64,000 nucleotides of DNA from Candidatus Aenigmatarchaeota archaeon (lineage in GTDB: Archaea; Aenigmatarchaeota; Aenigmatarchaeia; GW2011-AR5). Each line of letters opens with the position of its first letter. The stretch's first letter is position 1. The notes under the pieces are model-generated. The model ran no database searches. It had not been told where the DNA came from and saw only the letters and a list, made by a program, of their open reading frames with translations. The translations under genes and the position numbers were made by a program. Shown here one piece after another: positions 6,969 to 55,484 of the stretch. The DNA lies in contig JACPDL010000003.1 of NCBI GenBank assembly GCA_016184005.1, positions 380,974 to 444,973 on the forward strand, in the 5' to 3' direction.

Positions 6969-7151
6969 TACAACGTTTATTATCACATCCTCTTTCTGGA
7001 AGGGTTAAGGAAGTCTAAAGTCCTTTTATCAATTTATCTATTTCTTCTTTGTAAACCTTAAGGTAAGAAACTATAAAATCGATATCCCTTTGCTGGGCTT
7101 TCTTGTCTGTTATTGTTTCCTAAAATGCCCTGCAAAACTGGTGAAATAAAC

Positions 7152-7544
7152 CTACTTTTGAGTAGGTTTCTCTTCCACTATGACTGCGTTAATAACACCA
7201 TCTTGACCCGGCCGCGACGTGACGCGTGCCTTGCCGAGTTCTGTCTGTATTATTGCCCCTTTTGTTATTATGTTTCTCCTAACGAACTGCGCGTCGGCCT
7301 TGTTTTCCACGACGCTGAGTATCTTTGCCTTCTGCGCCTTGCCGCCGGCAAGCACGTTTGCTATGTTTGAAGAAAGCAGCATGAATTTGCTGTTGCCCCC
7401 GCGCGATCTCAGGATCTTTACTTTTACTGTGCCTATGTGGGCTGGCAGGAAGTCTCTTCCGCGCTGATGCCTCTTTTTCTTGCTTGCACGCTTAAGCAGA
7501 CCGCCCGTTATCTTCCTCTTCGACCTTAGATGCCATTGGGCCAT
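7152..7544 (-). CDS. rps8e: 30S ribosomal protein S8e.
   Basis: 130 aa. It is basic, with an N-terminus (MAQWHLRSKRKITGG...KKKRHQRG) typical of S8e. It ends with a TAG stop. Confidence 0.85.
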   Translation of the reverse strand: MAQWHLRSKRKITGGLLKRASKKKRHQRGRDFLPAHIGTVKVKILRSRGGNSKFMLLSSNIANVLAGGKAQKAKILSVVENKADAQFVRRNIITKGAIIQTELGKARVTSRPGQDGVINAVIVEEKPTQK

Positions 7545-7546
7545 AG

Positions 7547-7843
7547 TTACATCTTCCCGTGTTGAGGGACAAATTCTACGCCTTTAGCTTGGGACATGGG
7601 TTTTGAAGTAAATGTATAGATACCACAATTCCTCTCCAGTCCCGTCATTTGCCAATAACTCTGTAAATCCATATCGCGGACAAATGCAAAGGCTACTCTT
7701 TGTTGGTCCAGAACCTGTCTGACATTGTCTTGCCCGCAAATATGTATAGGACTCTGTAGCCCAGTCTCTTCGAGATATGCCTTCGCAAGTTCGCCAATCG
7801 CTCTGTCCGCAGCATATACTAATACACAATTTCCATCTTTCAT
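7547..7843 (-). CDS. Hypothetical protein.
   Basis: 98-aa ORF tightly linked to rps8e (2-bp gap). No motif was recognised. Confidence 0.3.
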   Translation of the reverse strand: MKDGNCVLVYAADRAIGELAKAYLEETGLQSPIHICGQDNVRQVLDQQRVAFAFVRDMDLQSYWQMTGLERNCGIYTFTSKPMSQAKGVEFVPQHGKM

Positions 7844-7932: not shown

Positions 7933-8157
7933 ATGGAAAGACCGATAGATGTATTGAACAATGCAAAAGGCAAGCGTGTTCTGATAAAGCTCAAGAAAGG
8001 CACTGAGATTTCAGGCATACTGCACGCGATGGACTTGCACCTCAACATGTGGCTGGAAGGCGCGGAGCAGATAACTGAAGAGAAAAAGATAAAACTTGGA
8101 ACAATACTCGTTAGAGGCGACAACATCCTCTACGTCTCGCCTGAAAAAAGCGAATAA
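7933..8157 (+). CDS. Sm-like (LSm) archaeal protein.
   Basis: 74 aa. It carries Sm1/Sm2 motifs (VLIKLKKGTEISGILHAMDLHLNMWL...ILVRGDNILYV). It is adjacent to L37e, the classic archaeal Sm-L37e pairing. Confidence 0.8.
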   Translation: MERPIDVLNNAKGKRVLIKLKKGTEISGILHAMDLHLNMWLEGAEQITEEKKIKLGTILVRGDNILYVSPEKSE

Positions 8158-8177
8158 AGCCTTTTCTTAAACGAAAT

Positions 8178-8195
8178 GACGCACTTTAGTGCGTC
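8178..8195 (+). terminator. Perfect 7-bp hairpin (GACGCAC-TTTA-GTGCGTC) downstream of the Sm gene.
   Basis: Inverted repeat seen directly, 20 nt after the Sm stop. A T-rich tract lies nearby. Confidence 0.3.
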
Positions 8196-8264
8196 TAGTC
8201 ACTTGAAGAAAACCCCCGGGAAAAGAAAACTAAAAAGCTAAGAGAAAGAATGTTGAGATGACTT

Positions 8265-8510
8265 ATGTCGAAGGGAACACCGTCATTCGGACGCCATCAG
8301 AGAATAACGCACATAAGATGCCGACGCTGTGGTAGGCATAGTTATCATATACAGAAGAAACAATGCAGTGCATGTGCTTATCCAAGGCCGAAGATGCGCA
8401 AGGAAAGCTGGAAATGGAAGCCTGTAAACCGCGCAAAGAGAAAGTATCTAAGGCCAAAACACCAGAAGGTCAAGACAGCACGACAGGGCAGATGGGTCAA
8501 GAATAAGTAG
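8265..8510 (+). CDS. rpl37e: 50S ribosomal protein L37e.
   Basis: 81 aa. A C4 zinc ribbon (CRRCGRHSYH...CSACAY) is present, with the characteristic MSKGTPSFG N-terminus. Confidence 0.85.
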   Translation: MSKGTPSFGRHQRITHIRCRRCGRHSYHIQKKQCSACAYPRPKMRKESWKWKPVNRAKRKYLRPKHQKVKTARQGRWVKNK

Positions 8511-8560
8511 AGAACCTAGGTTCTCTTCCTTATCAACCTTCTCTCCTAATTAAAAATATT

Positions 8561-9036: not shown

Positions 9037-9250
9037 GGGCCTGTAGCTCAGAGCAAATCCCTTTTCTTGGAAGAAAATGTCTTTGCATGTCCCAAAAGAA
9101 CGTGCAGGGATATTACAAGAAGATTTGGGATTGCGAGCAACCTGGTAGTTGCTTTTGATGCAACAGCAAGCACTCGCCTCTATTTCTAGTTGAAAAAGAC
9201 TGGAAAGGGCAATAAGCGAGGAGTCGCGGGTTCGAATCCCGTCGGGCCCA
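9037..9250 (+). tRNA. tRNA, probably Lys (anticodon CUU), interrupted by three introns. Exons are about 9037-9051, 9141-9148, 9169-9181 and 9213-9250.
   Basis: The acceptor stem GGGCCTG/CGGGCCC and T arm GCGGG-TTCGAAT-CCCGT are seen directly. Joining the four exons gives a canonical 74-nt tRNA: GGGCCUG UA GCUC AGCCUGGUA GAGC A CUCGC CUCUUAA GCGAG GAGUC GCGGG UUCGAAU CCCGU CGGGCCC A. Intron 1 (9052-9140) has a perfect BHB central helix GCTC/GAGC. Intron 3 (9182-9212) has the central helix GCCT/GGGC plus a 9-bp distal helix, which places the 5' cut after 9181 and gives anticodon CUU. If the junction is shifted, CAU or CUA become possible. The intron 2 motif is weak. Confidence 0.7.
9054..9110 (+). 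repeat. 57-nt two-hairpin element (copy A), nested inside tRNA-Lys intron 1.
   Basis: The sequence is caaatccc-TTTTCTT-gg-AAGAAAA-...-stem-cccaaaagaac-stem'. It is about 85% identical to copies at 9685-9741 (+) and 43591-43651 (-). Stem positions differ in compensating ways, while the loop cccaaaagaac is conserved. Confidence 0.6.
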
Positions 9251-9255
9251 TACTT

Positions 9256-9687
9256 TCAATCTTCGCATATCCCGCACTTTGTCGGTGACTGTGAGCAGGA
9301 AGTCTTGTATTGCTCGCAGCACTGCTCGAGTGTCGTGCCGAGGTTTTCGTTGCCTGAGCAGAGTTCGCACAAGCCGTCGCATTTCACGTCCTCGGATGTT
9401 GCGCAGCACAGCTTGTAGAGGCATGTGAACTTGCCGATATCAGGATTATTGAGGTATTTGCATGCCGAGTAGAAATCATTGAAGTCTTTCTGGTACGTGA
9501 CCCTCCAGTCGCATTGCTGCTTCTTGTAAGCGTCGCATTTGCTGAAGAATATCTCGTTGGCTTTTGCTGCCGTCATGCTGCCGCTGGACTGCGAAAGAAA
9601 GAATGCTGAAAGAATAATGAGGACAAGTACAAGAACCACGACTAAAACTATCATGCGCATCGGCAGTTCAAGACCTTTCATAAACAA
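9256..9687 (-). CDS. Small Cys-rich membrane protein (P1), paralogous to the 31362..31712 gene.
   Basis: The likely start is the internal MKGLELP (about 9681). It has an N-terminal TM helix followed by an extracellular Cys-rich domain. The motif DFNDFYSACKYL matches NYQKFYSSCKYVL in its paralog, and the N-termini align (MKGLELP versus MKGIDLP). It ends with a TGA stop. Confidence 0.5.
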   Translation of the reverse strand: MFMKGLELPMRMIVLVVVLVLVLIILSAFFLSQSSGSMTAAKANEIFFSKCDAYKKQQCDWRVTYQKDFNDFYSACKYLNNPDIGKFTCLYKLCCATSEDVKCDGLCELCSGNENLGTTLEQCCEQYKTSCSQSPTKCGICED

Positions 9688-9741
9688 ATCCCTTTTCTTG
9701 TAAGAAAAGGTCTTTGTAAACCCTAAAAGAACTTACAAAGA
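9685..9741 (+). repeat. 57-nt two-hairpin element (copy B).
   Basis: Intergenic, abutting the start of the 9256..9687 gene. Same architecture as copy A in the tRNA intron. Confidence 0.55.
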
Positions 9742-15812: not shown

Positions 15813-16086
15813 GGCTCTCTGATTTATTATGAAGTTTCCCGTATATTAAGATTAACCTGAAGAAGAAATATACAGATAATTGTAAAGAAAGACTATTGAC
15901 AAAAATATTTAATAGAAATCACTAGTCAAAGTCACTAAATTTTTCATGCTTATATGATTTTATGCCTTTGAGAACTCCAAAATAACTTTTCTTAAGCTTC
16001 CTTGCCCTGATAACTGCATTTATTTTCATTTATATCACCACTTATTATATTCGCTAGAATACATATTCAATTTGTGTGTAAAAACA

Positions 16087-16095
16087 TTTAAATAT
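16087..16095 (+). promoter_or_regulatory. Putative TATA box (TTTAAATAT), about 25 nt upstream of the vapB-like start.
   Basis: AT-rich box at the archaeal promoter distance from the ATG at 16116. Leaderless-type spacing. Confidence 0.3.
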
Positions 16096-16115
16096 GTGGT
16101 ATAACAAGTATAACC

Positions 16116-16364
16116 ATGTCTGCCGTAATAAAGAATGTTAACAAGGAAAGTTGGAAAATCCTGAGGGCAGAAGCAATAAAGCATGGCGTCACTACAGGGA
16201 AAATGCTTGAAGTACTTGTGAAAGAACATGTGGAAAAAGAAAAAAGTAAGAAACATGCATGGGATTTAATATTGACGAAAAGACCATTACTGACCAAAAA
16301 GGAAGCAGAAGCTATTAAGAAAAGAACCGAAGAATTTAGAAAAAGCTTCAAGATGAGAATATGA
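16116..16364 (+). CDS. Type II antitoxin (VapB-like) paired with the downstream PIN toxin.
   Basis: 82 aa. It overlaps the following PIN gene in an ATGA arrangement. It sits in an AT-rich segment. Confidence 0.5.
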   Translation: MSAVIKNVNKESWKILRAEAIKHGVTTGKMLEVLVKEHVEKEKSKKHAWDLILTKRPLLTKKEAEAIKKRTEEFRKSFKMRI

Positions 16365-16753
16365 ATCTTGCGCTTGACACCAATATCCTCATTGAAATCG
16401 ACCGCTTGAATAAGAAAATAATAGAAAAACTTGAATCTTTGAGAAAAGAAGAACAACTAGATCCTACACTTCCCGCATTAGTAGTTCTGGAATATTATTA
16501 TGGATTTTTAGACTCAAGAAAAAAAGAAAGTGCGTTAAAAAATATTAACAAATATACAATACTTAATACATCGAAAGGTTCTTCTTTACTGTCTGCTGAA
16601 ATTAAACATAAGCTTGAAAGAGCAGGCCAGATAATTCCTGACATTGATATCATTATTGCAGCTATTTGCATAGATAACAATGCCATATTAGTTACTTCAG
16701 ATAAGCAGTTTGAGAAAATAAAAGAATTAAACAAAATCATTCTTGATGTTTAA
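16361..16753 (+). CDS. vapC: PIN-domain ribonuclease toxin (VapC family).
   Basis: 130 aa. The N-terminus LALDTNILIE carries the PIN acidic residue, and a C-terminal D (LVTSDKQF) follows. Confidence 0.7.
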   Translation: MNLALDTNILIEIDRLNKKIIEKLESLRKEEQLDPTLPALVVLEYYYGFLDSRKKESALKNINKYTILNTSKGSSLLSAEIKHKLERAGQIIPDIDIIIAAICIDNNAILVTSDKQFEKIKELNKIILDV

Positions 16754-16756
16754 TTT

Positions 16757-18961
16757 TTATCTTATCTTCATGCCGTTTGGCAGCTTCTTTGCCGGCGATA
16801 TCAGGGTGCCGTCGTCTGCAGCAAGCAGCATGCCCTCGCTTTTCTGCCCGCGCAGCACAGCAGGCTCCAGATTGGCTATAATAACTGCCTGCCTGCCGAG
16901 GAGTTCTTCTTTCTTGTATATGCCTTTCAGCCCCGCGACAAGCTGCCGCTGCTCACCGCCGAGATCGATTTTCAGTAGAAATAGCTTGTCCGCATCAGGA
17001 TGATCCTTGACATCTACAATAGTAGCAATCCTGAGATCGAGTTTCTTGAAATCTTCAAGCTTCACATAAGCACCTTTATTGATGTTTTCATTTTCTTTTT
17101 TCTTTTCTCCTATAATATTTTTATTAGGAGAGGAGGTTGATAGGTTCAGAGGACCAGAGGTCTCTGACCTGCCAGAAACCAGCGGGTTTCTGAGCAAGGA
17201 TGAGAACCTAGGTTCTCGACTTATTTTTGAATACTTTGTGCGGTATTTTTTTGCAGCTTCCAGCTCCTTGTCTTCTATTTTCCTGAAAAGGATTAAAGCG
17301 CGAATCCTTGTGCCCGCCTTGACGGCGAATTTTGTGTTGTCTTTCCACGCTGTAGTCTTTGTTCCCAGGCATTCCAGCGCCTTTTTGCTTGATTCGGGAA
17401 TATAAGGCGAGAGCAGCAGCGAGATGGTTCTCAGCGCATTGATCGCTGTGTAGACTGTCGTGGCAGTGTCCAGTTTGTTTTTGAATGTCCAGGGCTCTTT
17501 TTCCTGGAAATATTTGTTGACGAATGCCGACAGGGCAAGTGTTTTTTTCAAAGCTTCTCTAAGTTTAACGTTATCTACATCTTTTTCGACGGCTTTTACA
17601 GTATTACCGATCTTCTTGATGACTTCTTTTTCTTTTTTCCCGGGCTTTCCGGGTTTCGGTAGTTTGCCATTATAGTTCTTTTCCACGAAATGGGTTGCGC
17701 GATGCAGAAGATTGCCGTAGTTGCCGATAAGCTCGCTGTTTATCCTGTCGCGAAAATCGTCCCAGTCAAAATTGCTGTCCTTGCTTTCGGGCAGGAGCAG
17801 CGACAGGTAGAACCTCCAGTAATCAACGGGGAACAAGTCTAGCGCCTCATCGCTGAAAAGCCCTATGCCCCTGCTTGTGGAGAACTTCTGGCCTTCCCAG
17901 TTGAGATACTCATAACCGGCGACGTAGTGAGGCAGTGTGAATTTCTTTGAGGCAAGTAATATAGCCGGCCAGAATACCGTGTGGAAGGGTATGTTGTCCT
18001 TGCCGATGAAATGATAGACCTTTGCGGGCCCAGACCACCATTGCTGCCATTTCTTTATTTGCCTGCGGCCCTGGCCTTCCTTGGTTATAGATACATAGCC
18101 GATGGGCGCATCAAACCATACATAGAAAACAAGATGTTCGTAGCCTTTCATAGGAACTGGTATTCCCCATTTCAAATTCCGTGTTATGCAGCGCGGCTTG
18201 AGGCCTTCTTTCAGCCATCCGAGCGCGAAGTTCCTTACATTATCGGGCCAGTGGTCGTTTGATAAAATCCATTTCTTCAGCTGCGGCTGGAGTTTTGACA
18301 GGTCGAGGAAAAGGTGCTTCTCCTCGCGGAACTCAATGTCTGTCTTGCCGCAGACGGTGCAGCGCGGCTTTATCAAGTCAGTCGGGTCAAGAAGCGTGCT
18401 GCATTTCTCGCACTGGTCGCCGCGCGCGGAATCATAGCTGCATTTTGGGCACACGCCTGTAATAAACCTGTCAGGAAGAAATCTTTCGTCGTTCCTGCAG
18501 AAAGGCAGTGTAAGCGCCTGCTCCTTTATGTAGCCGTTCTTCCTGATTGCGAGGAAAACATCTTTTGTGATGGCATGATGCACCTGTGACGAAGTGCGGC
18601 CAAAGAAGCTGAAATCAAAGTTCCATTTTTCATATATTGCTTTCTGCAGTTTGTAGTATTTGTCAGAGTATTGCTGCGGCGACAGGCCTTCCTCAAGCGC
18701 GGCCACTTCGGTCGGCGTGCCGTGCTCGTCGGTGCCGCATATGTATATATTCTCAATACCCCTCAAATCAAGAAACCTGTGAAATACGTCAGACGGAAGG
18801 AAAGATCCAATTAGATTTCCGAGGTGCTTGACGCCGTTGACATAAGGCAAAGCAGACGTGATAGTAACCTTGAAATCAATCACCTCAATGAATATCATAT
18901 CGTTCTTTTTATATAACACACAACTAAAGTTGTGGGTTGAACGATGTGATCCCAGAGACAT
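16757..18961 (-). CDS. metG: Methionyl-tRNA synthetase with a C-terminal EMAP-like tRNA-binding domain.
   Basis: The HxGH-type motif PYVNGVKHLGNLIGS is present. A zinc knuckle (CPKCSYDSARGDQCEKCS...CTVCGK) and a KMSKS variant (KFSTSRG) are present. The C-terminal OB-fold domain is LDLRIATIVDVKDHPDADKLFLLKIDLGGE. The true start is probably the internal Met at about 18898. Confidence 0.9.
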   Translation of the reverse strand: MSLGSHRSTHNFSCVLYKKNDMIFIEVIDFKVTITSALPYVNGVKHLGNLIGSFLPSDVFHRFLDLRGIENIYICGTDEHGTPTEVAALEEGLSPQQYSDKYYKLQKAIYEKWNFDFSFFGRTSSQVHHAITKDVFLAIRKNGYIKEQALTLPFCRNDERFLPDRFITGVCPKCSYDSARGDQCEKCSTLLDPTDLIKPRCTVCGKTDIEFREEKHLFLDLSKLQPQLKKWILSNDHWPDNVRNFALGWLKEGLKPRCITRNLKWGIPVPMKGYEHLVFYVWFDAPIGYVSITKEGQGRRQIKKWQQWWSGPAKVYHFIGKDNIPFHTVFWPAILLASKKFTLPHYVAGYEYLNWEGQKFSTSRGIGLFSDEALDLFPVDYWRFYLSLLLPESKDSNFDWDDFRDRINSELIGNYGNLLHRATHFVEKNYNGKLPKPGKPGKKEKEVIKKIGNTVKAVEKDVDNVKLREALKKTLALSAFVNKYFQEKEPWTFKNKLDTATTVYTAINALRTISLLLSPYIPESSKKALECLGTKTTAWKDNTKFAVKAGTRIRALILFRKIEDKELEAAKKYRTKYSKISREPRFSSLLRNPLVSGRSETSGPLNLSTSSPNKNIIGEKKKENENINKGAYVKLEDFKKLDLRIATIVDVKDHPDADKLFLLKIDLGGEQRQLVAGLKGIYKKEELLGRQAVIIANLEPAVLRGQKSEGMLLAADDGTLISPAKKLPNGMKIR

Positions 18962-25092: not shown

Positions 25093-25141
25093 AGTCAGCA
25101 AAGAAAGTATATATCGATTCTTTCTTTGCATGACTATAACA
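25093..25141. repeat. 17-bp near-perfect inverted repeat (TAGTCAGCAAAGAAAG...CTTTCTTTGCATGACTA) between the giant glycoprotein gene start and the trpS end.
   Basis: Seen directly. It may act as a trpS terminator or as an operator for the glycoprotein gene. Confidence 0.4.
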
Positions 25142-36494: not shown

Positions 36495-36722
36495 TTATTT
36501 TTGTTGCCGCGCCTCGATGAATGCCAGAACCAGGCCAATGATTATCAATGTCAACCCTGTGAATACCGTTTCGCCCTGCATAAGATACGTCGAAACGCCA
36601 ACGCCGAAAACAATTCCTGCCGTGAAGAGAAGAACCTTTTCCTCATCATGGGTGTTGAGATAAAGATCTCTGGTTATCAAACCTTTGTTGTTTTTCCTCG
36701 TTGCTTTTCTTCTTGCAGCCAT
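36495..36722 (-). CDS. Small membrane protein.
   Basis: 75 aa, two TM helices, basic N-terminus. Confidence 0.3.
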   Translation of the reverse strand: MAARRKATRKNNKGLITRDLYLNTHDEEKVLLFTAGIVFGVGVSTYLMQGETVFTGLTLIIIGLVLAFIEARQQK

Positions 36723-36769
36723 CTAACTCACCGTAATTATTTTGTAATGCGTGGTATATAAAGATTAAG

Positions 36770-37112
36770 AAGGAGAAAACCTAGGTTTCCTGCAGAGAAC
36801 CTAAGTTCTCTGAGGTCTCAACTCGAGGAAAGCAAAGCTTTCCTGAGTCTTCAGAAACCTTTGGTTTCTGCAAGAAGAGCGAAGCTCTTTGCAGATCTCC
36901 TTTCTAATCCTCATTCCTAATCAAGAATATTATTTTTCTCGCTCAGAAAACAAAGTTTTCTGGCGTCTCAAAGAGCATGGCTCTTTGCAGATTTCCCAAG
37001 GATTTTCTTTTCTCTAAAGGAAGAGGGGTTATCTGCAGAAAGCAAAGCTTTCTGAGATGTCAGAATTGCTTTGCAATTCTGCACATAGGGGAGAAAACGC
37101 AGTTTCTCCCTA
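36770..37112. repeat. Tandem array of about ten different perfect hairpins (6-9-bp AG-rich stems, 3-6-nt loops) filling the aspS-downstream spacer.
   Basis: The hairpins read directly are AAACCTAGGTTT, CAGAGAAC-CTAA-GTTCTCTG, AGGAAAGC-AAA-GCTTTCCT, CAGAAACC-TTT-GGTTTCTG, AAGAGC-GAA-GCTCTT, CAGAAAAC-AAA-GTTTTCTG, CAAAGAGC-ATG-GCTCTTTG, CAGAAAGC-AAA-GCTTTCTG, CAGAATTGC-TTT-GCAATTCTG and GGGAGAAA-ACGCAG-TTTCTCCC. Confidence 0.7.
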
Positions 37113-38420
37113 TTATGGGGTTAGTCTGTCGACGTCCCGAGGGAAGAGGACAGCCTCCCTGACATTAGGCAGGTTGAGTATTTGCATCGTAAGCCTCTCG
37201 ATGCCTATAGAAAATCCGCCATGCGGCGGCACGCCGAACTTGAAGAAATCTGTGAACCATCTTATTGAATCCATGGACATCTTCTTCTCGCGAAGCTGCT
37301 GGACCAGCTTGTCATGCCTGTGCTCGCGCTGGCCGCCGGAGCTCATCTCCATGCCTTTGTAAATGAGGTCTATGCTGCGCGCCCATGTGGGATCTTTGTC
37401 CACGCGCATGACATAAAACGGCTTCTCTGCAAAAGGAAACCGGTTCACGAAAAAGAAATCAGAGCCGAACTCGTTCTTCACATACTCTCCGAGCTTCTTT
37501 TCTCCGTCTGAGCCGTAAGAAGCCTTCCCGTATTCAACTTTTTCGCCTAGTGTCTTCAGTACATCGTAAAGATCAGGAAATTCCAGCACGGGGAATTTCT
37601 TTTTCGGCACATCCAGTTTTATGCCAAGAATATCCAGCTCGTCCCTGCAGTCTTTCACAAGCCTCTCGATTGCAAATCTTATCATTTCTTCCTCGAGGCT
37701 GATGACGTCGTATTCGTCTGTTATGAAAGCCATCTCGGCAGCAATAGTCCTGTGCTCTGATAAATGCCTTGTGGTATGCGACAATTCTGCGCGCCAGCTC
37801 GGGCCAACGTCGTAAACACGCTCCAGGCCTGCAGCAACAGAGAGTTGCCTGTGAAGCTGGGGGTCCTGGCGCAAGAAAGCTTCCTTGTCGTAATAGACTA
37901 CGGAAAAAAGTTCGGCGCCGCTTTCTGATGCAGAGCCCATCAGCGACGGCGTAAATACCTGGACAAAGCCCTCTTTCTTCAGGAAAAGCTGCATTTCCTG
38001 GACGAGCGTTGACTGCACACGAAAGACGGCGTTGTGCTCAGGTTTCCTGAGGTCTATGCTTCTCCAGTCCAGCCTTTTGTCAAGCGTAGTCTTTATGCCG
38101 GGAGAGATATCAATAGGCAGGTTTTCAGCAAGTGAGATGACGTTGATATTTTTCGGCAGTATTTCGAGCTTGTTTGGCGCCTGCTTGTTGTCTACAACAT
38201 CGCCTGTAACAGAAATCACGGATTCCCTTTTCAGGTCCTTCAGCAATTCCATTATACTGTCGTCTGTTACGCCTTTCTTTGCTGTTATCTGCACGAGTCC
38301 GGTAAAATCGCGAACAACAGCAAACACAATGGAGCCGAGGACCCTTTTCTCGTGCAGCCATCCGGCTACAGTGATGTTCTTGCACGCTTTCAGTTCTTTT
38401 GCATAATGCGTTCGGAGCAT
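37113..38420 (-). CDS. aspS: Aspartyl-tRNA synthetase (archaeal class IIb).
   Basis: 435 aa. It has an N-terminal OB anticodon-binding domain, class II motif 2 (FFFVNRFPFAEKPFYVMR) and motif 3 (GGFSIGIERLTMQILNLPNVREAVLFPRD). Confidence 0.9.
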   Translation of the reverse strand: MLRTHYAKELKACKNITVAGWLHEKRVLGSIVFAVVRDFTGLVQITAKKGVTDDSIMELLKDLKRESVISVTGDVVDNKQAPNKLEILPKNINVISLAENLPIDISPGIKTTLDKRLDWRSIDLRKPEHNAVFRVQSTLVQEMQLFLKKEGFVQVFTPSLMGSASESGAELFSVVYYDKEAFLRQDPQLHRQLSVAAGLERVYDVGPSWRAELSHTTRHLSEHRTIAAEMAFITDEYDVISLEEEMIRFAIERLVKDCRDELDILGIKLDVPKKKFPVLEFPDLYDVLKTLGEKVEYGKASYGSDGEKKLGEYVKNEFGSDFFFVNRFPFAEKPFYVMRVDKDPTWARSIDLIYKGMEMSSGGQREHRHDKLVQQLREKKMSMDSIRWFTDFFKFGVPPHGGFSIGIERLTMQILNLPNVREAVLFPRDVDRLTP

Positions 38421-38722: not shown

Positions 38723-39418
38723 TCAGTCCTGCTTATGAAGCTCATTACATTGCTTTGCTCTTTTTCTTTTTTCATCAATGTGGCCGTTATCCAGGACTTC
38801 CTTACAATGTCCGGGAAGTCTTTGTTATCTTGTAGCCAATTCTTTAAAAACGCTATAGTGCGTTCGTCGGAAGTGTAACCGGAGCCGAAGAAGCCGTATT
38901 TATGATGAAGCTTGCTTATTTCCGCGTCGCGATGAACCTTGGCAATTATCGAGGCTGCGCCGACCTCGGGGTATTTCTTGTCGGCAAAATTCTCCGCTAC
39001 CAGTTCAAACCGGGTGTGCTTGAGCCTGCAAAGGACCTTTTCCCTGAACCTTTTTGTATTTGCTTCTGGCGCATCGATCACCGCTTTTCCGGGGCAAAGC
39101 AGGTCTATCATCTGCTGCATGCGCTCTATCTCAATCCTGTTAAGATTGGTTTCCGTTCTTAATTTGTCTATTTCCTGCGGCGATATGGACAGCACAACAA
39201 GATCTTCAGCCATCTTCTTCAGCCTGGGCACGAGGCTTTCCCTTTTCTCAGGCGTAAGTTGCTTTGAGTCTTTGACGCCCAGTTCCCTTAGCTCTCCAAT
39301 CTTGCCTTCCTTCACAAGATAGCCGCACATCACAAGCGGGCCGATGACAGGTCCTAACGGCAAGTGAAACTAAATTTCACTTTCTACCGGCTTCATCGAT
39401 ACCCAAAACATTTCTCAA
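38719..39418 (-). CDS. rnhB: Ribonuclease HII interrupted by a 28-nt BHB intron. Exon 1 runs from about 39384 to a TTG start (39404-39406 or 39416-39418). The intron is 39356..39383. Exon 2 is 38719..39355.
   Basis: The ORF-track ORF starts with TTG at LPLGPVIGPLV and lacks the catalytic DEAGRG motif. Immediately upstream, in another frame, lies GGT ATC GAT GAA GCC GGT AGA (GIDEAGR). Removing 28 nt (A-AAGTGAAA-TTTAG-TTTCACTT-GCCG-TT) joins the two pieces as GIDEAGR-GPVIGPLV, the canonical RNase HII N-terminus. The downstream motifs IDAPE, ADKKYPEVGAASIIAK and GSGYTSD are intact. Confidence 0.7.
39356..39383 (-). ncRNA. 28-nt bulge-helix-bulge intron inside the rnhB coding region.
   Basis: The central 4-bp helix is CGGT (exon 1 end) paired with GCCG (intron). 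Each side has a 3-nt bulge (AG|A and TT|A), with cuts after the second bulge nucleotide. The distal helix is 8 bp, AAGTGAAA/TTTCACTT, with loop TTTAG. The architecture matches the tRNA-Lys intron 1 and tRNA-iMet T-loop intron in this window. Confidence 0.65.
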
Positions 39419-40431
39419 ATCACTATCACCTCTTTATCTATAGGTAACTTGTTCCATAAGTATTGTTTTTGTTGTATTAATTTCAATCTCTGCATTTCGT
39501 CGAGTCTCTTTTTTGCAGCTTTCCAGTTTACATCTAATAGTTTAGCAATTTCGCTTGTTTTACATGGGATTTCAAGAAGTTGTAGTATTTCTGACTTTCT
39601 TTGGGAAATAATAATCATATTCAAGTCTGATCTAATCCAGTAATCTCTACTAAGACATCTATAATTTGTAATTTTACCTTCTCTTTTTAATGCTGTTAAG
39701 TGATCTTGCAGAGTAGCTTGTTTTCGATTAAAAATTATAGAAAGTTCTTTGCTAGTTACAGGCTTTGAAAGGTATTGTAAAATATTATTTCTGATATAAT
39801 TTGACGGATAGTGAATTTCTTTGAAAGATTTCCAAGTAGCTAAGAACTTAGCTCTTTTATCTGGATGCAAAACAAATAAATTATATTTATAAAATTTTTC
39901 CCAATTACTCCAACCAGTAATTACATAGGCACGTTCACGTGTGGAAAAGGTGGATTTTATATCAAGATATTTTAGTATTTTATCTATCAACTCTATCTTT
40001 TCTTTTTGAGCAATTCTTATTGTTCTGTTAGAATGAACTCCTGATTTTATATTGCCTTCTCCTGCAAAAAATCCTTTCAGTACGGGAACAAAATATTTTT
40101 CCTGTGATGTAATTTTAGATACTATTTTTCTCCATTTTATTACATCTTTAGTATTCGCATAACGCAAAATGTGATATGGTTTTCTAGCTCTAATATCTTT
40201 ATAGAGTTGGGCTCTGCAATTTCTTAACTTCAATGATTGACCACCATTAGGTGAATAAGTATAAAGTCTGAATTTATTTTTAGGAAATATTTTTGAAAGT
40301 GTTTGATAGAATAGCTTGACAAGTAATTCACAATTATTTGTAAAAGTTATTTCTCTAATTGTTTTATCATCTCCTTCAGCAATCCAAAGTCCGACACATT
40401 CTGCTAATCTATTGGACCAATTATCTGTCAT
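39415..40431 (-). CDS. Free-standing double-motif LAGLIDADG homing endonuclease with a C-terminal winged-helix domain.
   Basis: 338 aa. The two LAGLIDADG-like motifs are ECVGLWIAEGD and LKGFFAGEGNI. A C-terminal HTH (SEIAKLLDVNWKAAKKRLDEM) follows. The gene is AT-rich (about 30% GC), unlike its neighbours. Confidence 0.6.
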   Translation of the reverse strand: MTDNWSNRLAECVGLWIAEGDDKTIREITFTNNCELLVKLFYQTLSKIFPKNKFRLYTYSPNGGQSLKLRNCRAQLYKDIRARKPYHILRYANTKDVIKWRKIVSKITSQEKYFVPVLKGFFAGEGNIKSGVHSNRTIRIAQKEKIELIDKILKYLDIKSTFSTRERAYVITGWSNWEKFYKYNLFVLHPDKRAKFLATWKSFKEIHYPSNYIRNNILQYLSKPVTSKELSIIFNRKQATLQDHLTALKREGKITNYRCLSRDYWIRSDLNMIIISQRKSEILQLLEIPCKTSEIAKLLDVNWKAAKKRLDEMQRLKLIQQKQYLWNKLPIDKEVIVI

Positions 40432-40831: not shown

Positions 40832-40968
40832 AGCGGAGTGGAGCATTGATTTTAGAAATTTCTATAATCACTCGAAGCCTGGAGTGCTCGTCGGGCCCAT
40901 AACCCGAAGGCCAGAGGTTCAAAAACAAGTCACAAAAATGGGACTTGTGGAATTTCCTCTCTCCGCTA
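40832..40968 (+). tRNA. Initiator tRNA-Met (anticodon CAU) with two non-canonical introns, one in the D arm (about 31-34 nt) and one in the T loop (40924-40954).
   Basis: It has an A1:U72 acceptor pair (AGCGGAG/CTCCGCT, discriminator A). The anticodon stem TCGGG/CCCGA has three consecutive G:C pairs. The anticodon loop is CCCATAA (CAU). The T stem AGAGG/CCTCT is split by a 31-nt insert with the BHB layout A-ACAAGTC-loop-GACTTGT-GGAA-TT (central helix TTCA/GGAA, 3 of 4 pairs). The D stem GAGC/GCTC is separated by about 41 nt that includes the hairpin GATT-T-TAGAAATTTCTA-TA-ATC. The exact D-arm junction is ambiguous. Confidence 0.7.
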
Positions 40969-41733
40969 TTTACTATTTAATTCTTGTAAAGCAGAAAATG
41001 CTCTTTTATTATTCTTATTCCTTTCCTTCCAAAGTTGGAATTTTTTAAGATGTTTTGGATGACGAAAACCTATAAGCTGCATCCATTTCACAAGTTGTAA
41101 ATGGCCATAAATAGCGATTTCGTACTTGAGTATTTTCTTTTTTACTCTTGGATCATAATAATTATGTGTAAATCTACTTACACTAAAACCTTCTGATTCC
41201 AAGAAGTCAGCTATTTCATCTCTTAATATTCTTGACTTTGATACTCCATTTATTACAGGATAATATTGATAATTCTTGTATCTTCTTTTTAACGAGATGC
41301 ATAAATCTGTATCTGCAAATCCTTGTATAAAAGATTTCATCATTTCTTTACTATCTAAGAAAATTGTTGGTATTTTAATATTGTCTTTTCGCCCACTTGG
41401 AAGACCTATAATTTTCGTTAAAAATAAAACCAACGATTTAGATCGTAGTGTAAATCCATAAGTATTATCCCTTTCATGTAGTTTATTCTTAATCTTGGAG
41501 TTAAATAATTTGTAGAACAAATCTAACAAAACTTTATCATAAAATTCTCTTTCATCAAGCTGATTGCCGAGACACGTTACAGAATATTCATGTTTATCAA
41601 ATCTCGTATGTATATTTCCATCTCCTGCTAGAACACCACAAACATAGGCAAGATCTTTTGTAGATTCAATTGGAAGAAAGAAATCTTTTGATTTTTCCTG
41701 TCTAGTCAATTCTATAGTAGAAATATCTAACAT
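40966..41733 (-). CDS. Free-standing double-motif LAGLIDADG homing endonuclease.
   Basis: 255 aa. The motifs are LAYVCGVLAGDGNI and FIQGFADTDLCI. AT-rich. Its TAG stop overlaps the 3' end of tRNA-iMet by 3 nt. Confidence 0.65.
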   Translation of the reverse strand: MLDISTIELTRQEKSKDFFLPIESTKDLAYVCGVLAGDGNIHTRFDKHEYSVTCLGNQLDEREFYDKVLLDLFYKLFNSKIKNKLHERDNTYGFTLRSKSLVLFLTKIIGLPSGRKDNIKIPTIFLDSKEMMKSFIQGFADTDLCISLKRRYKNYQYYPVINGVSKSRILRDEIADFLESEGFSVSRFTHNYYDPRVKKKILKYEIAIYGHLQLVKWMQLIGFRHPKHLKKFQLWKERNKNNKRAFSALQELNSK

Positions 41734-43590: not shown

Positions 43591-43651
43591 GAGGTCTTTG
43601 TTTTCTTTGGGACATACAAAGACCTTTCTTTTCTGAAAAGAAAGGGATTTG
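43591..43651 (-). repeat. 57-nt two-hairpin element (copy C), between rpl21e and rpoF.
   Basis: The reverse complement reads caaatccc-TTTCTTTT-cag-AAAAGAAA-gGTCTTTGT-atgtcccaaagaaa-ACAAAGACc. It has the same architecture as copies A and B, with compensating stem changes. Confidence 0.55.
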
Positions 43652-43984: not shown

Positions 43985-44330
43985 ATCAGTTTACCTTCTT
44001 TTTCTGATCGAATTCCAGTTCAACGCCGCCCACGCGTTTTGCCATAACGTTGTACAGGAATGCAGAAACTGCACCCATAATGAACATTGCGTGCTCTAAT
44101 CAAATTTCATATCCCGGTTCTTAAATAGCTATTAACAATCTGATTTTTTACTAAGGGAAAAGAGGTTACATGGTGAAGCAAAGCTCCACCTGTACAGGTG
44201 GAATCAAAGATTCCACCATGTAGAAGGAGAAAAACCGTAGGTTTGTTCTCCTCTTTTAAAGTTGATTATCCATATTCAAGAAAAGCAGGAAAACATCTAT
44301 GAGTGATAAGAGTGTTTGAGGTAATGACAA

Positions 44331-46170: not shown

Positions 46171-46327
46171 TGTCAAGGACCACCGTCTGAAGACGGTGGC
46201 TTGCTGAAATTTCTGAATCCTTGAGCACATGGTAAACCAAAGGTTTACCTGTGTCGCAAAGCCCAAAGCTTTGCAACAATTCGCATTCCCTGAACCACTG
46301 CTTAAAAACAATGGAATGCGAAGTATA
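46171..46327 (+). repeat. About 105-bp two-hairpin repeat element (copy 1) with a nested 51-bp two-hairpin insertion at 46228-46278, immediately upstream of the lysK start.
   Basis: The sequence TGTCAAGGACCACCGTCTGAAGACGGTGGC...CGCATTCCCTGAACCACTG-CTTAAAAACA-ATGGAATGCGAAGT matches copies at 53432-53539 and 55118-55225. The insert CATGGTAAACC-AAA-GGTTTACC...GCAAAGC-CCAA-AGCTTTGC is flanked by a CA duplication. Confidence 0.65.
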
Positions 46328-46331
46328 AATC

Positions 46332-47948
46332 ATGATGGACGCGCAGATAGAGTTCTACACATGGGCTGACAGGATAGCCGGGGAGATGCAAAAAAGAAAA
46401 GTCAAGAAGCAGGTAGTTCACGGGATGTGGACGCCTTCCGGTTATTTCCATATCGGAAATGCAAGAACTGAACTGCTCATACCGGGGCTTGTTTTCCAGG
46501 CACTGGAAGACGCCGGAACACACGCTAAATTCAATTTTTTCGTGGACGATGCAGACGATCTGGATGCAGTGCCCGCCGGACTGAATCTTAATGCTGAAGA
46601 TTTCAAGGAGCATCTTGGCAAGCCCATATACGAAGCGCCTTCTCCTGATTATAGCCATGAAACGTGGGCGGACTATTTCACCGCTGAAATAAAAGACGTG
46701 ATGCACGAATACGGATTGAAGCCAAAATGGCACTCTTCTTATGAAAATTACCACAAAGGGCTTTATGATGATTCAATAACAACCGCCCTGAACAGCGCAA
46801 GGAAGATAAGGGATATCTGGGTAAAGATAACAAGGTCTGACAAGCCTGAAAACTGGCTGCCCGTCATTGTGAAATGCGAAAACTGCGGCAGGTCAGGCAC
46901 AACAAATGCAACCGGCTGGGACGGCAAGCACCTGTCTTATTCGTGCACGCAAGACCGCGAATATGCCAAAGGCTGCAGGCATGAAGGGCAGGTTATGCCA
47001 AAGAAGGGCAATGTAAAACTGCCATGGAGGCTGCACTGGCCGGCGACATGGAACATATTCAAAACGACATTTGAATCGGCCGGCAAAGATCATTTTGCCG
47101 CCAGCGGATCGGTAGACACAGGAAAGGTTTTTTCGGAAGAGATCTTCAAGTATGCCCCGCCTCTTCTCGTAGGCGGGGAATTCGTACAGATAAAAGGGAA
47201 AAAAATATCCGGATCAAAAGGAAATGCAATATCGCTGAAGCAGTGGCTGGAATTTGCAGAGCCTGAACTGCTGCGGTTCATGATGATTTCCTACCAGCCG
47301 CAGACAGTCATTGAATTTGACCTGGAATCAAACAAGCTTTTCCTGCTTGCCGACCGCTATGACGAGGCAGAAAGCGTTTATTTCCGTGAAAAGTCTCTAA
47401 ATGAAAAGAGGGACAACCAGCTGAAAAGGGAATACACACTTTCTCAGACAGGGAAGCCCGCCAAGATGCCGCAAATCAGCTATTCAATCGCTTCCATGAT
47501 TTCCCAGGTATACGCAGGAAGAAGCACGGAAGAGATAATAAATCTACTGGAGTCAATGGGTGCCATAAAGAACCCTGGCAAAAAAGACGCTGAAAAAATA
47601 ATTCACAGGCTGAAACTGGCAAAAACATGGGTTGAAAAATACGCTCCTGAGGAAATGAGAATCAATGTCAGGGAAACAGCAAGCAAGGAATTTGTTTCCT
47701 CTTTGAATGAAAACGAAAAGAAAGCGCTGGATCAGCTGGCAGGCGAACTTGACGCATACAAGAAAGAAGGGGAACTGCAGTCGCGCATATATGAAATTGC
47801 CAGGGAAAACAACGTCGAGCCCAAGAGGCTCTTTACCATCTGCTACCAGCTTCTCATCGGCCGTGACTCGGGCCCGCGTCTCGGGCCTTTTATCATGACA
47901 ATAGGAAAAGAAAAAGTTAAAGGGCTTTTTGGCCGGGCAATAGATTAA
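46332..47948 (+). CDS. lysK: Class I lysyl-tRNA synthetase.
   Basis: 538 aa. The HIGN motif is PSGYFHIGNARTELLIPG. The KMSKS variant is KISGSKGN. A zinc-binding Cys cluster is present (CENCGRSG...CTQD...C). The architecture is archaeal LysRS-I. Confidence 0.85.
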   Translation: MMDAQIEFYTWADRIAGEMQKRKVKKQVVHGMWTPSGYFHIGNARTELLIPGLVFQALEDAGTHAKFNFFVDDADDLDAVPAGLNLNAEDFKEHLGKPIYEAPSPDYSHETWADYFTAEIKDVMHEYGLKPKWHSSYENYHKGLYDDSITTALNSARKIRDIWVKITRSDKPENWLPVIVKCENCGRSGTTNATGWDGKHLSYSCTQDREYAKGCRHEGQVMPKKGNVKLPWRLHWPATWNIFKTTFESAGKDHFAASGSVDTGKVFSEEIFKYAPPLLVGGEFVQIKGKKISGSKGNAISLKQWLEFAEPELLRFMMISYQPQTVIEFDLESNKLFLLADRYDEAESVYFREKSLNEKRDNQLKREYTLSQTGKPAKMPQISYSIASMISQVYAGRSTEEIINLLESMGAIKNPGKKDAEKIIHRLKLAKTWVEKYAPEEMRINVRETASKEFVSSLNENEKKALDQLAGELDAYKKEGELQSRIYEIARENNVEPKRLFTICYQLLIGRDSGPRLGPFIMTIGKEKVKGLFGRAID

Positions 47949-53285: not shown

Positions 53286-53431
53286 CCATCTCAAACTATA
53301 ATACTATGGTTTTGAATCATAATGGATCGTCTTTAGCAGTTTATCTTTTGCATCATTTGGCAAAGTAGCTATTTCGCCGCTACTCTTATTTTCTCTTCTA
53401 TGAAATGTTACTTGGAAGTTTTTCAAGAATA

Positions 53432-53539
53432 TGTCAAGGACCACCGTCTAAAGACGGTGGCATGCTGAAATTTATGAATCCTTGAGCAATTCGCATTCCC
53501 TGAACCACTGTTTAAAAACAGTGGAATGCGAAGTTTCAA
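53432..53539 (+). repeat. About 105-bp two-hairpin repeat element (copy 2), intergenic.
   Basis: Identical to copy 3 over about 100 nt. Hairpins are CCACCGTCT-AA-AGACGGTGG and CGCATTCC[ctgaa]CCACTG-tttaaaaa-CAGTGGAATGCG. Flanked by TCAA on both sides. Confidence 0.65.
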
Positions 53540-53861: not shown

Positions 53862-53873
53862 ATAGTCACCAAA

Positions 53874-54113
53874 TGCTCTCGGCGGGATTGCTGCAAAGAG
53901 CGAAGCTGTTTGAGCCCTCGATGAGCTACGCTCAACTCGAAGAAGCCCAAAGGCCTTCTTGAGTTTACAGAAAGTTTCACTTTCTGATAAATCGAAGGTG
54001 AACCCAGGGGTTCAAATCTTATGCTCTCGGCGGGATTGCTTCAGAAACCAAAGGTTTCTGAGCTCTCGGCGAGCTGCGCTCAGCCGCAGATGAACCCAGG
54101 GGTTCAAATCTTA
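53874..54113 (-). repeat. Tandem partial duplications of the tRNA-Glu 3' end, interspersed with mini-hairpins.
   Basis: The 17-nt tRNA 3' terminus (reverse complement AATCCCGCCGAGAGCAT) recurs at 53874-53890 and 54022-54038, in addition to the real tRNA at 54113-54129. A 40-nt unit (tgaacccaggggttcaaatcttatgctctcggcgggatt) occurs twice. Between the copies lie diverged 45-nt repeats and the hairpins AGAAACC-AAA-GGTTTCT, CAGAAAG-TTTCA-CTTTCTG and GAAGCCC-AAA-GGCCTTC. Confidence 0.6.
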
Positions 54114-54237
54114 TGCTCTCGGCGGGATTTGAACCCGCGTCCGCGGCGATCTCCAGTTTTTCCCCGAGGGCTTTTGCGCCTCAGCGGAAAAGGGCTCTGA
54201 GAGGCCACTATCCTTGACCGGGCTAGACTACGAGAGC
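54114..54237 (-). tRNA. tRNA-Glu (anticodon CUC) with a 49-nt canonical 37/38 intron (54149-54197).
   Basis: The acceptor stem is GCTCTCG/CGAGAGC with discriminator A. The D arm is GTCT-AGCCCGGTCAA-GGAT. The anticodon stem is GTGGC/GCCGC and the loop is CUCUCA|C. The T arm is GCGGG-TTCAAAT-CCCGC. The intron's BHB central helix is CTCT/GGAG with bulges CA|G and AT|C. Confidence 0.75.
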
Positions 54238-55058: not shown

Positions 55059-55484
55059 ATGTATAAAATTTACCATTCCCAGAAGTTTGATAAAGAATTA
55101 GATAAATTTGGCAAAGATGTCAAGGACCACCGTCTAAAGACGGTGGCATGCTGAAATTTATGAATCCTTGAGCAATTCGCATTCCCTGAACCACTGTTTA
55201 AAAACAGTGGAATGCGAAGTTTCAAAGAGCGAGTCAATAAAATTGAAGATCAGCTAGTAAAGAATCCTAATGTTGGATCTCCTTTAGGAATTTCATGGTT
55301 AAGAGAAAAGAGATATGGTAAATATAGAATTTATTACATTATTTATGAAGACTTGAAATCTGTTTTTATGGTAGCTATTAGTGAGAAAAAAGATCAGCAG
55401 AAAGTTATCAATACAGTTAAAATTCTTTTAGAATACTTCAAAGAAGAAATAAAAGAATTAGTGGATAAGAATAAAATTACTTAA
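55059..55484 (+). pseudogene. RelE/ParE-family toxin gene split in frame by a 102-bp insertion of the 105-bp repeat element (55122-55223).
   Basis: The N-terminal piece MYKIYHSQKFDKELDKFGKDV (55059-55121) and the ORF 55212-55484 (..KERVNKIEDQLVKNPNVGSPLGISWLREKRYGKYRIYYIIYEDLKSVFMVAISEKKD) share one frame and together form a canonical RelE/ParE sequence. The insert carries an in-frame TGA. The flanks are TCAA/TCAA. No BHB fit is found at this junction. Confidence 0.55.
55118..55225 (+). repeat. About 105-bp two-hairpin repeat element (copy 3), inserted into the relE-like gene.
   Basis: Same sequence as copy 2. Confidence 0.65.

Follow-up and report, generated by a model that had tools for sequence, protein, structure and literature searches.

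A BIME-like cluster of hairpin elements, probably mobile, between aspS and the next promoter of a DPANN archaeon

Hairpin repeats of the REP and REPIN type are held to be a bacterial speciality, and REPINs have been stated as not detected in archaea (bioRxiv 10.1101/2021.07.10.451892). The RAYT subclasses have likewise not been seen in Archaea, where IS200-type TnpA is the only known Y1 subclass (PMC6006769). Both IS200/IS605 transposases and RAYTs recognise their substrates as a hairpin plus an adjacent short sequence (PMC6006769, PMC3733652). Archaeal MITEs have been described in Sulfolobus, Halobacterium and Haloquadratum and reach high densities in some DPANN genomes (PMC10969869, PMC11602168), and our search of the literature on Aenigmarchaeota or DPANN archaea with hairpin or REP repeats found nothing specific. 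Here we analyse a 64,000-nt stretch of DNA (the window) from a DPANN archaeon, Candidatus Aenigmatarchaeota, in which the spacer 3' of aspS holds an array of small hairpins. We consider it probable, at roughly 70%, that the hairpins of this spacer form a BIME-like cluster of short mobile elements, non-autonomous and recently accumulated ahead of the next promoter.

The nearest public contig is JAGVVX010000039 (isolate RIFCSPHIGHO2_01_FULL_AR5_44_11), with a DNA identity of ~96-97%, and several Logan, ENA and JGI metagenome contigs were also compared. All of these comparison sequences, numbered L001, L002 and so on where they have to be told apart, are metagenome assemblies of mixed populations. 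Three Logan contigs terminate within the array, which may represent a repeat-induced assembly break. The array occupies a 390-bp spacer between aspS and a gene of 75 aa, where it sits between the aspS stop and the TATA box of the second gene:

37113 to 38420, minus strand: aspS, aspartyl-tRNA synthetase (Pfam tRNA-synt_2, 2.5e-74, and tRNA_anti-codon, the anticodon OB domain); the array is 3' of it
36495 to 36722, minus strand: 75-aa gene, the next after aspS on the same strand, without a Pfam match and syntenic in relatives
about 36752 to 36760, minus strand: TATA box of the 75-aa gene, assigned by sequence, TTTATATA on the minus strand

The homologues of aspS are annotated as aspartate--tRNA(Asn) ligase of Ca. 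Aenigmarchaeota, and the counterparts of the 75-aa gene are 77 aa long in L017 and 71 aa long in L040. A coding repeat was rejected for the array, as there are stops in all six of its frames.

The hairpin array described in the first-pass annotation is real. Eight perfect hairpins with stems of 8-9 bp, together with about three weaker ones, were found in the spacer, and the loops of the perfect hairpins measure 3 nt in six of the eight, 4 nt in one and 6 nt in another. The spacer can be divided into a backbone, two insertions and two modules that do not form hairpins:

36793-36812, 36826-36844, 36852-36870, 36944-36962, 36969-36987, 37036-37054, 37061-37081 and 37089-37110: the perfect hairpins
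36772-36790 and 36875-36889 (6 bp): weaker hairpins
37087 to 37112: hairpin H7, GGGGAGAAAAC gca GTTTCTCCCC, carrying one bulge and perfect over 37089-37110, immediately 3' of the aspS stop
37033 to 37086: Insertion B, a 54-nt doublet, with CAGAAAGC aaa GCTTTCTG at 37036-37054 and CAGAATTGC ttt GCAATTCTG at 37061-81
36992 to 37032: Module C, a non-hairpin repeat module, tttcccaaggattttcttttctctaaaggaagaggggttat, with related copies at 8205-8223 and in the L002 spacer
36944 to 36987: backbone doublet, CAGAAAAC aaa GTTTTCTG, linker gcgtct, CAAAGAGC atg GCTCTTTG
36896 to 36937: Module B, an AT-rich non-hairpin module, ctcctttctaatcctcattcctaatcaagaatattattttt
36789 to 36895: Insertion A, a 107-nt quadruplet, with hairpins at 36793-36812, 36826-36844, 36852-36870 and 36875-36889
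36772 to 36788: palindrome H6, left arm and loop, GGAGAAAACC ta GGTTT..., adjoining the TATA box and intact in L001

The statement that the spacer consists almost entirely of hairpins goes too far, as they cover ~55% of the 343 nt and Modules B and C lie between them. Among the hairpins of the window with a stem of at least 7 bp, 8 fall in the spacer and 33 in coding DNA (57.8 kb), and the remaining 5829 bp of intergenic sequence contribute 12. The hairpin density of the spacer is ~10x that of the remaining intergenic DNA (Poisson P(>=8) = 2.1e-6). Markov simulations of the spacer gave a mean of 0.34 hairpins and a maximum of 5 in 2000 runs, and against shuffles it folds with a z-score of -10.7 as plus-strand DNA and of -9.0 as minus-strand RNA. 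Over the full window, 53 hairpins with a stem of at least 7 bp were counted where 23 +/- 5 are expected.

A single design is common to the array hairpins, C-A-R-A-R-n-n-C / loop / G-n-n-Y-T-Y-T-G with linkers of RGRTCT type (aggtct, gagtct, gcgtct and agatgt in the window), and their starts are spaced ~25-33 nt apart. The claim that they share a design and differ in sequence stands for the design, but they are variants of a common pattern rather than unrelated sequences. Several stems also recur elsewhere in the window. The stem CAGAAACC/GGTTTCTG recurs at 17173 and 54042, CAAAGAGC at 53893, and GAGAACC-ta-GGTTCTC is found at 8509 and 17202. Only these three stems recur, and most array hairpins have no exact copy elsewhere. 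Members of the family were located at four further places in the window:

17147 to 17217: three family hairpins, in frame, in the linker of metS (MetRS, 16757-18961, minus strand)
46228 to 46278: 51-nt hairpin doublet nested in copy 1 of a 105-nt element, missing from copies 2 and 3
53893 to 54061: family hairpins in a repeated tRNA-gene flank (53893-53911, imperfect; 53968-53986; 54041-54061)
8509 to 8526: one hairpin of the family, AGAGAACC ta GGTTCTCT, where an 81-aa gene (8265-8510, plus strand) has its stop

Hairpins in copy 1 of the 105-nt element and in the tRNA flank, for which kinship had been proposed, are among these. Family members had also been placed at the S8e stop and at 25093-25141; the hairpins there (7148-7169 for the S8e stop), like that at 39362-39382, have other sequences and do not clearly belong to the family. 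At the tRNA flank a 62-nt repeat occurs twice, with different hairpins in its two copies at the equivalent position, and the MetRS linker of L018 has different hairpins at the position occupied in the window. We agree that the array is not a CRISPR, as its direct families are short and only 62-87% similar and it is the hairpins that vary and the 6-8-nt linkers that stay constant.

Beyond the window, hairpins with a stem of at least 8 bp and a loop of 3-4 nt are again in excess, the window having 20 where 2.9 are expected and L001 13 where 0.5 are. Hairpins of the same class lie ~7-fold to >25-fold over expectation in the window and close strains and are at chance level in most of the more distant relatives. 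In a relative with 60% AspRS identity (L004) we found a separate array of four hairpins built on this design, one of its stems being CAAAGAGC/GCTCTTTG, and a closed 918-kb genome of 66% identity has a few hairpins of this class. Given this distribution, with a separate array in L004, a few hairpins in the closed genome and chance level in most others, the hairpin family predates this lineage and has expanded in some of its branches.

Between aspS and the 77-aa gene, L017 (AspRS 78% identical) has 42 bp, with a TATA-like box (ctttaaatag) directly 3' of the aspS stop; the aspS spacer of L040 (68% identical) measures 82 bp; and the spacer of L002 (86% identical) is ~95 bp long, its only hairpin element being unrelated to the array and having a paralogue at 8150-8230 in the window. 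Among strains whose AspRS is >=99% identical we found three versions of the array, namely the window type (L013-L015), that of L001 and that of L016. The array sequence is not an assembly artefact, as the first 264 nt of the spacer are base-identical to the window in three independent Logan assemblies (L013-L015). Relative to L001, whose flanking DNA is ~96-97% identical, the window has two extra blocks, the 107-nt quadruplet and the 54-nt doublet. Insertion A sits in the right arm of palindrome H6 and is missing in L001, which reads ...cctaggttt|ttctcctttc... at this site. Insertion B is missing in both L001 and L016, and the empty site in L001 reads ...gaggggttat|aggggag.... Hairpin H7 is part of the backbone common to all AR5-like strains, and its copies in L001 and L016 differ by one loop base. 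In the backbone doublet, flanks and linker are identical between the window and L001, and three fully compensated stem pairs and both loops differ; the divergence of this doublet is ~10x that of the surrounding DNA. Module B occurs once in the window spacer, three times in the L001 spacer and once more at L001:1036.

Near-identical strains thus differ by whole doublet or quadruplet blocks, by hairpins swapped while the linkers around them stayed the same, and by tandem copies of a non-hairpin module. These comparisons show that the array has accreted recently from hairpin blocks of a dispersed family, which are gained, lost and exchanged between near-identical strains. Comparison with the relatives shows a young and unstable array and an ancestral spacer that was tens of bases long. 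With spacer content that varies between near-identical strains and a short spacer in relatives, a conserved RNA gene, a required terminator and a fixed operator array are ruled out. The absence of this spacer from syntenic relatives had been named beforehand as a result that would tell against the proposals of the first-pass annotation; its functional-RNA readings do fall with it, and its insertion reading predicts it.

A structure at the 3' end of aspS that is retained as useful, be it a multi-terminator (another proposal of that annotation), a 3'-exonuclease barrier or a read-through insulator, would suit an array placed directly after the aspS stop and ahead of a TATA box, and the sense RNA folds very stably (z = -9.0). 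For bacterial REPs so placed, roles in termination and in stabilising mRNA have been proposed (PMC3733652). However, syntenic relatives cope with 42-95 bp and no array, the content differs among strains with >=99% identical AspRS, and the units are found in both orientations and also within coding DNA. Further, on the sense strand of aspS none of the hairpins is followed by a run of at least five T, for which reason an intrinsic terminator was rejected. We therefore regard a useful 3' structure as improbable and the multi-terminator as not upheld. Host function is superfluous to everything seen here, and 3'-end protection, termination and promoter insulation are possible.

We searched the metagenome contigs for a hairpin cassette of the same design using a 31-base core pattern, CGAAATCCNNNGGATTTCGGAATCTCAGAGAAAC. 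The pattern matched 21 times, on 19 stretches of four JGI samples, which corresponds to ~15 distinct sites after overlaps are removed. The cassette, common to all copies, is 108 nt long and reads (A)TTCT-CAAAAAGC gca GCTTTTTG-GGAATTCT-CGAAATCC aaa GGATTTCG-GAATC-TCAGAGAAAC gaa GTTTCTCTGA-AGATCTC-GGAGAAGC ttc GCTTCTCC-CAAGA, with the linkers GGAATTCT, GGAATCT and AAGATCT. Its borders are sharp, the flanks being unrelated from the exact ends onward, and both orientations were found, as in L001, where two unlinked copies of the four-hairpin cassette face opposite ways. Genes surrounding the copies have housekeeping roles and encode CTP synthase, a Na/H exchanger, UbiA, NrdR and others. A two-hairpin derivative that keeps the cassette termini is located inside another repeat in L019, and hairpin clusters occur in the aspS spacer, at L001:1205-1303 and at L019:3300-3700. 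When cassette ends are joined (AAGA + TTCT) they recreate the internal linker, which suggests that the linkers may be the break points. The proposal that the spacer represents accumulated insertions of a mini-element is borne out by presence/absence polymorphism among strains, empty syntenic sites and this dispersed cassette of the same design (~15 loci).

The copies differ from each other in a patterned way. Among 15 cassette copies the pairwise difference per site is highest in the flanks (0.634) and the loops (0.443) and falls to 0.079 in stems and 0.011 in linkers. In the two hairpins outside the search pattern, which the compensation test covered, five stem pairs (9 cells) are altered on both sides, compared with 2.4 +/- 1.3 cells after shuffling, and none of 500 shuffles reached 9. 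Single-arm intermediates, G.T as well as A.C, are both present among the copies without strand preference. The loops occur as reverse-complement pairs (AAA/TTT, GAA/TTC and GGA/TCC), so the flipped loops are inversions of the loop between perfect arms, an event at the DNA level. Together, the copies show that hairpin pairing is kept through compensated change and that loops flip. An invariant linker, a stem constrained in structure only and a free loop would be expected if a protein recognised the hairpin along with a short sequence beside it.

These data also bear on the suggestion that the spacer encodes a structured non-coding RNA or the precursor of several small hairpin RNAs. Strong folding is predicted on both strands, and a TATA-like AT-rich stretch on the minus strand of Module B could in principle drive a transcript. 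However, the stems are perfect Watson-Crick palindromes on both strands, the G.T and A.C intermediates in the cassette copies favour neither strand, and the locus is not conserved, being absent from syntenic relatives and variable in content among strains. A known RNA family was also rejected: at gathering score Rfam yielded only a tRNA elsewhere in the window, and at E<=1 the spacer had chance-level matches to eukaryotic miRNA models, the best of them 26 bits against a gathering score of 90. It would seem very unlikely that the array is an RNA of this kind.

Still less credence can be given to operators or iterons for a dimeric DNA-binding protein at the adjacent promoter, or to the mark of a replication origin. 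The hairpins do have a dyad symmetry, CAGAAA-N7-TTTCTG, and a GGAGAAAACCtaGGTTTTCTCC-type palindrome adjoins the TATA boxes of two genes, as a palindrome similar to H6 flanks the TATA box of the DUF655 gene (~44235-44262). However, the covariation of the inner stem bases and of the pair that closes the loop is that of a hairpin and not of a spacer between half-sites, and sites are gained and lost between strains and are also present inside genes. A replication origin at the array was rejected, as the cumulative GC skew has no inflection here and the Orc1/Cdc6 family is absent from the 26 ORFs of the window that were run against Pfam.

The inserts with a known empty site measure 54, 54, 51, 54, 57, 69 and 107-108 nt, all multiples of 3 except for the ambiguous 107. 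The basic unit is a perfect hairpin of 19-21 nt (stem of 8-10 bp, 3-nt loop, purine-rich 5' arm) with a conserved linker of 6-8 nt, giving a period of ~27 nt, and movement involves doublets (51-57 nt) and quadruplets (~108 nt). The two hairpins of a doublet differ in sequence and each is itself palindromic, so that their relative orientation is undefined. Nesting is seen in L019, where a copy of the 105-nt element holds four doublets, two of the four exactly in the loops of the element's own hairpins. The cassette is stop-free in four of six frames, and genes are left open where hairpin units have inserted in frame, as is known from Rickettsia palindromic elements (RPEs) and intragenic REPs (PMC3733652, PMC10969869): we found such insertions in the linker and the N-terminus of MetRS and in an AlkD-like protein. 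In L018 (92-94% DNA identity) three cassette hairpins follow codon 6 of metS in frame, and the corresponding site in the window is empty. In the AlkD-like protein the cassette lies in the middle of the DNA_alkylation domain, where the Pfam match is split in two and the better stretch begins right after the residues encoded by the cassette; ...SEKPRFSEIPKSFGFREFQK... is an example of a predicted cassette-encoded peptide. Proteins such as MetRS thus gain 17-36 residues from hairpin units, and ORF callers extend or invent ORFs over stop-free cassettes.

Growth in place offers a different origin for the array, in which a unit of ~27 nt, hairpin plus linker, was expanded by slippage or unequal recombination and then diverged, the stems being perfected by template switching, and no transposition took place here. 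The hairpin spacing of ~25-33 nt, the similar linkers and the local triplication of Module B in the L001 spacer fit this idea, flipped loops and compensated stems fit template switching, and neither a transposase nor a target duplication or target motif was found. However, identical 108-nt cassettes with sharp borders at ~15 unlinked sites, doublets with the same termini within unrelated elements and genes, the recurrence of array stems at 17173, 54042, 53893, 8509 and 17202, and Insertions A and B as discrete blocks with clean empty sites in a ~96-97% identical strain all speak against it, and we think it unlikely to be the origin of the array. Local duplication clearly contributes, as the Module B triplication in L001 demonstrates, and since most array hairpins lack an exact counterpart at other loci, duplication on the spot followed by divergence could account for part of the array.

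Under our preferred reading, a BIME-like cluster of mobile hairpins, the elements would travel as single-stranded DNA hairpins. Mobilisation would fall to a structure-specific enzyme acting in trans that requires two hairpins and cleaves in the linker, in the manner of an IS200/IS605 or RAYT-type HUH tyrosine transposase. A Y1 HUH transposase is pointed to by the doublet unit, the lack of target duplication and terminal inverted repeats, and the presence of a PATE-like 105-nt element in the same genome. Stem perfection may be upheld by the requirement of the enzyme, by intrastrand template switching (palindrome correction) or by both, and template switching would explain the flipped loops. Insertion into or beside older hairpins would let clusters grow, and some doublets do lie inside or beside existing hairpins (the L019 loops, the H6 arm), which would explain the growth of the aspS cluster simply. 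The array would require no cellular function, and any effect on aspS 3' ends or on the adjacent promoter would be incidental.

Our search for the mobilising enzyme covered the 64-kb window and ~130 kb of related contigs, in all ~190 kb of the lineage and a small part of any genome, and no RAYT, TnpA or TnpB gene was found in this sequence. Pfam identified no transposase or recombinase among 52 proteins of the window and related loci, clustering of 405 ORFs gave no recurrent ORF family next to cassettes, tblastn with an IS608 TnpA query had no match, and an HUH...Y motif scan was negative for all 1225 ORFs of the sequence examined. A 268-aa ORF near rnhB in L016 was tested for kinship with the two LAGLIDADG-like ORFs of the window and is unrelated to them. 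The target-site duplications that the first-pass annotation had proposed to look for were not found: seven pairs of filled and empty sites show none beyond 0-2 nt, and the flanks of ~15 cassettes show no target-site duplication, terminal inverted repeats or shared target motif. No diagnostic junction was seen at the inserts either, and with neither a conserved target nor such a junction transposition is not told apart from ectopic recombination or template switching, both of which are possible.

A stronger form of our reading would make these elements a true archaeal counterpart of REPINs in Aenigmarchaeota. Doublets of 27-nt units would be copied as single-stranded DNA by a putative domesticated HUH-type transposase, or by another enzyme that reads the hairpin shape and the 6-8-nt linker. 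Their coding-compatible design, stop-free and a multiple of 3, would allow them to colonise essential genes as well as intergenic DNA, with a preference for existing hairpins. We put this forward tentatively and think it rather doubtful as a whole. For a reduced, ~90% coding DPANN genome, our data mean that fast-moving hairpin units reshape promoter-proximal spacers between near-identical strains, which makes hairpin arrays sensitive strain markers. The constraint pattern of invariant linkers, structure-only stems and free loops offers a concrete substrate for finding the enzyme.

Among known systems, bacterial REP/BIME and REPIN-RAYT repeats resemble these elements in having palindromic units of ~20-40 nt that are present in many copies, mostly extragenic, clustered and strain-variable (PMC3733652, PMC3116915). 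A short conserved tag beside a hairpin that is conserved in structure and not in sequence is shared with REPs and REPINs, and a mobile hairpin doublet without target duplication is shared with REPINs (PMC3733652, PMC3116915). In contrast to these systems, the host here is an archaeon and a RAYT gene was not found in the sequence examined, the tag is GAATTCT, GAATCT or AGATCT-like rather than GTAG or CGTC, the stems are perfect with loops of 3 nt, and the doublets are two different hairpins side by side whereas a REPIN is two inverted copies of one REP. We reject membership of the GTAG/CGTC REP family, as the end-tag test failed and the linkers differ; only one of the cassette and window linkers contains CGTC. 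RPEs and CGTC-tagged REPs are also similar in that they are inserted in frame into the linkers or termini of functional proteins, have stems of 8-9 bp and have no dedicated transposase identified (PMC3733652, PMC10969869). Unlike RPEs, to which they are unrelated in sequence, the elements described here belong to an archaeon (DPANN), have smaller units (27-nt period, 54/108-nt blocks), and their inserts of 51-108 nt are multiples of 3 (107 being ambiguous).

PATE-type MITEs derived from IS200/IS605 carry a subterminal hairpin at either end and lack both terminal inverted repeats and target duplication, an architecture that the hairpin elements share and that is matched exactly by the 105-nt element of the window. 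The hairpin elements differ from PATEs in that no fixed 4-5-nt target is present 5' of one end in ~15 cassette copies and no TnpA/TnpB in the sequence examined, and in being far shorter and made of hairpins only. Classical MITEs are likewise non-autonomous, multicopy, intergenic and strain-variable (PMC10969869, PMC11602168). The terminal inverted repeats and target-site duplications that define a classical MITE are absent here, so we reject that class, and automated MITE finders, which seek these two features, would miss such hairpin elements. Small inversions associated with hairpins and quasi-palindrome correction by template switching produce flipped loops and turn single-arm changes into compensated ones. 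Template switching is a mutational process and not an element, and it explains the upkeep of the hairpins but not their dispersal. The nearest kinds are thus bacterial REP/BIME/REPIN, CGTC-type REPs and RPEs, and the PATEs derived from IS200/IS605, from which the archaeal host, the 27-nt coding-compatible design and the constraint pattern set this family apart.

The family hairpins, dispersed mobile units that are packed into the spacer between aspS and a 75-aa gene, were also found as blocks inserted into, or standing in place of, coding sequence in related contigs. One such replacement concerns the following ORF:

43990-44100, minus strand: small ORF (MFIMGAVSAFLYNVMAKRVGGVELEFDQKKKVN) with the Rpb4-like gene on one side and the DUF655 gene on the other

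In strain L001 (1150-1340), a hairpin cassette stands in place of most of this ORF and just its last codons are left. Within metS, strain L018 carries an in-frame hairpin block of 69 nt inserted after codon 6. In the window metS is listed as a 734-aa ORF (16757-18961), yet its true start is probably the GTG near 18871 (MIDFKVTITSALPY...), and the extension upstream of this GTG has no counterpart among homologues. The toxin-antitoxin content downstream of metS (PIN, MazE-like) is completely different between the window (15866-16756) and L018 (8171-8905). Further, three independent Logan contigs (L013, L014 and L015) end at one hairpin, CAGAAACC aaa GGTTTCTG, at window position about 36849; this hairpin has a second occurrence at 54042, and short-read assemblies may be broken by repeats at about 36849.

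Further palindromes lie at these places:

9054-9106, 9685-9737 and 43615-43650; also L017:10-29: repeated motif CAAATCCCTTTYCTT..AAGAAAAGGTCTTTG..CCCAAAAGAA
36772-36790 and about 44235-44262; also L001:1005-1035 and 7615-7640: GGAGAAAACC ta GGTTTTCTCC-type palindrome

The first motif lies in spacers close to genes for ribosomal proteins and RNA-polymerase subunits and carries a pyrimidine-first palindrome, which was found as well in L017, the relative with a 78% identical AspRS. This motif may be a true signal for regulation or termination, separate from the mobile hairpins. The 75-aa gene and the unrelated DUF655 gene each have the second palindrome immediately upstream of their TATA box. At both L001 sites this palindrome is preceded by module B, the AT-rich non-hairpin module of the aspS spacer; the palindrome is possibly an operator or a promoter-proximal mobile module. 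The first-pass annotation had counted 25093-25141, upstream of the 1483-aa gene, among the mini-hairpins, but this is a long imperfect palindrome of a different type (GCAAAGAAAG ... CTTTCTTTGC) whose 12-nt AT-rich loop has tatatat inside.

Two further loci vary or contain repeats:

39415-40431 and 40966-41733: a pair of ORFs that match LAGLIDADG_3 (and HTH) weakly
54114-54237, minus strand: intron-containing tRNA, matched by Rfam and missed by ARAGORN

Both ORFs are missing in L001, which has other DNA at that place. The region forms a variable island on the upstream side of rnhB; the insertion earlier described as an rnhB intron is intergenic and lies outside the gene. The 3' terminal 17-45 nt of the tRNA, which had been named tRNA-Glu, recur at three downstream positions (53873-53889, 53993-54037 and 54085-54129), with family hairpins between the repeated pieces. 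These repeats look like leftover attachment-site duplications or a local tandem duplication.

Finally, the hairpin doublets (about 51-57 nt) have a preferred landing pad in a longer element:

46171-46332, 53428-53539 and 55114-55225; also L019:3300-3700: 105-nt repeat, three copies in the window

This repeat has a 9-bp hairpin close to either end (CCACCGTCT aa AGACGGTGG; CCACTGTTT aa AAACAGTGG), and strain L024 has an empty site (L024:2072) for the copy at 46171, immediately upstream of lysS. No terminal inverted repeat was found in the element and the duplication is at most 2 nt; its architecture is IS200/IS605-PATE-like.
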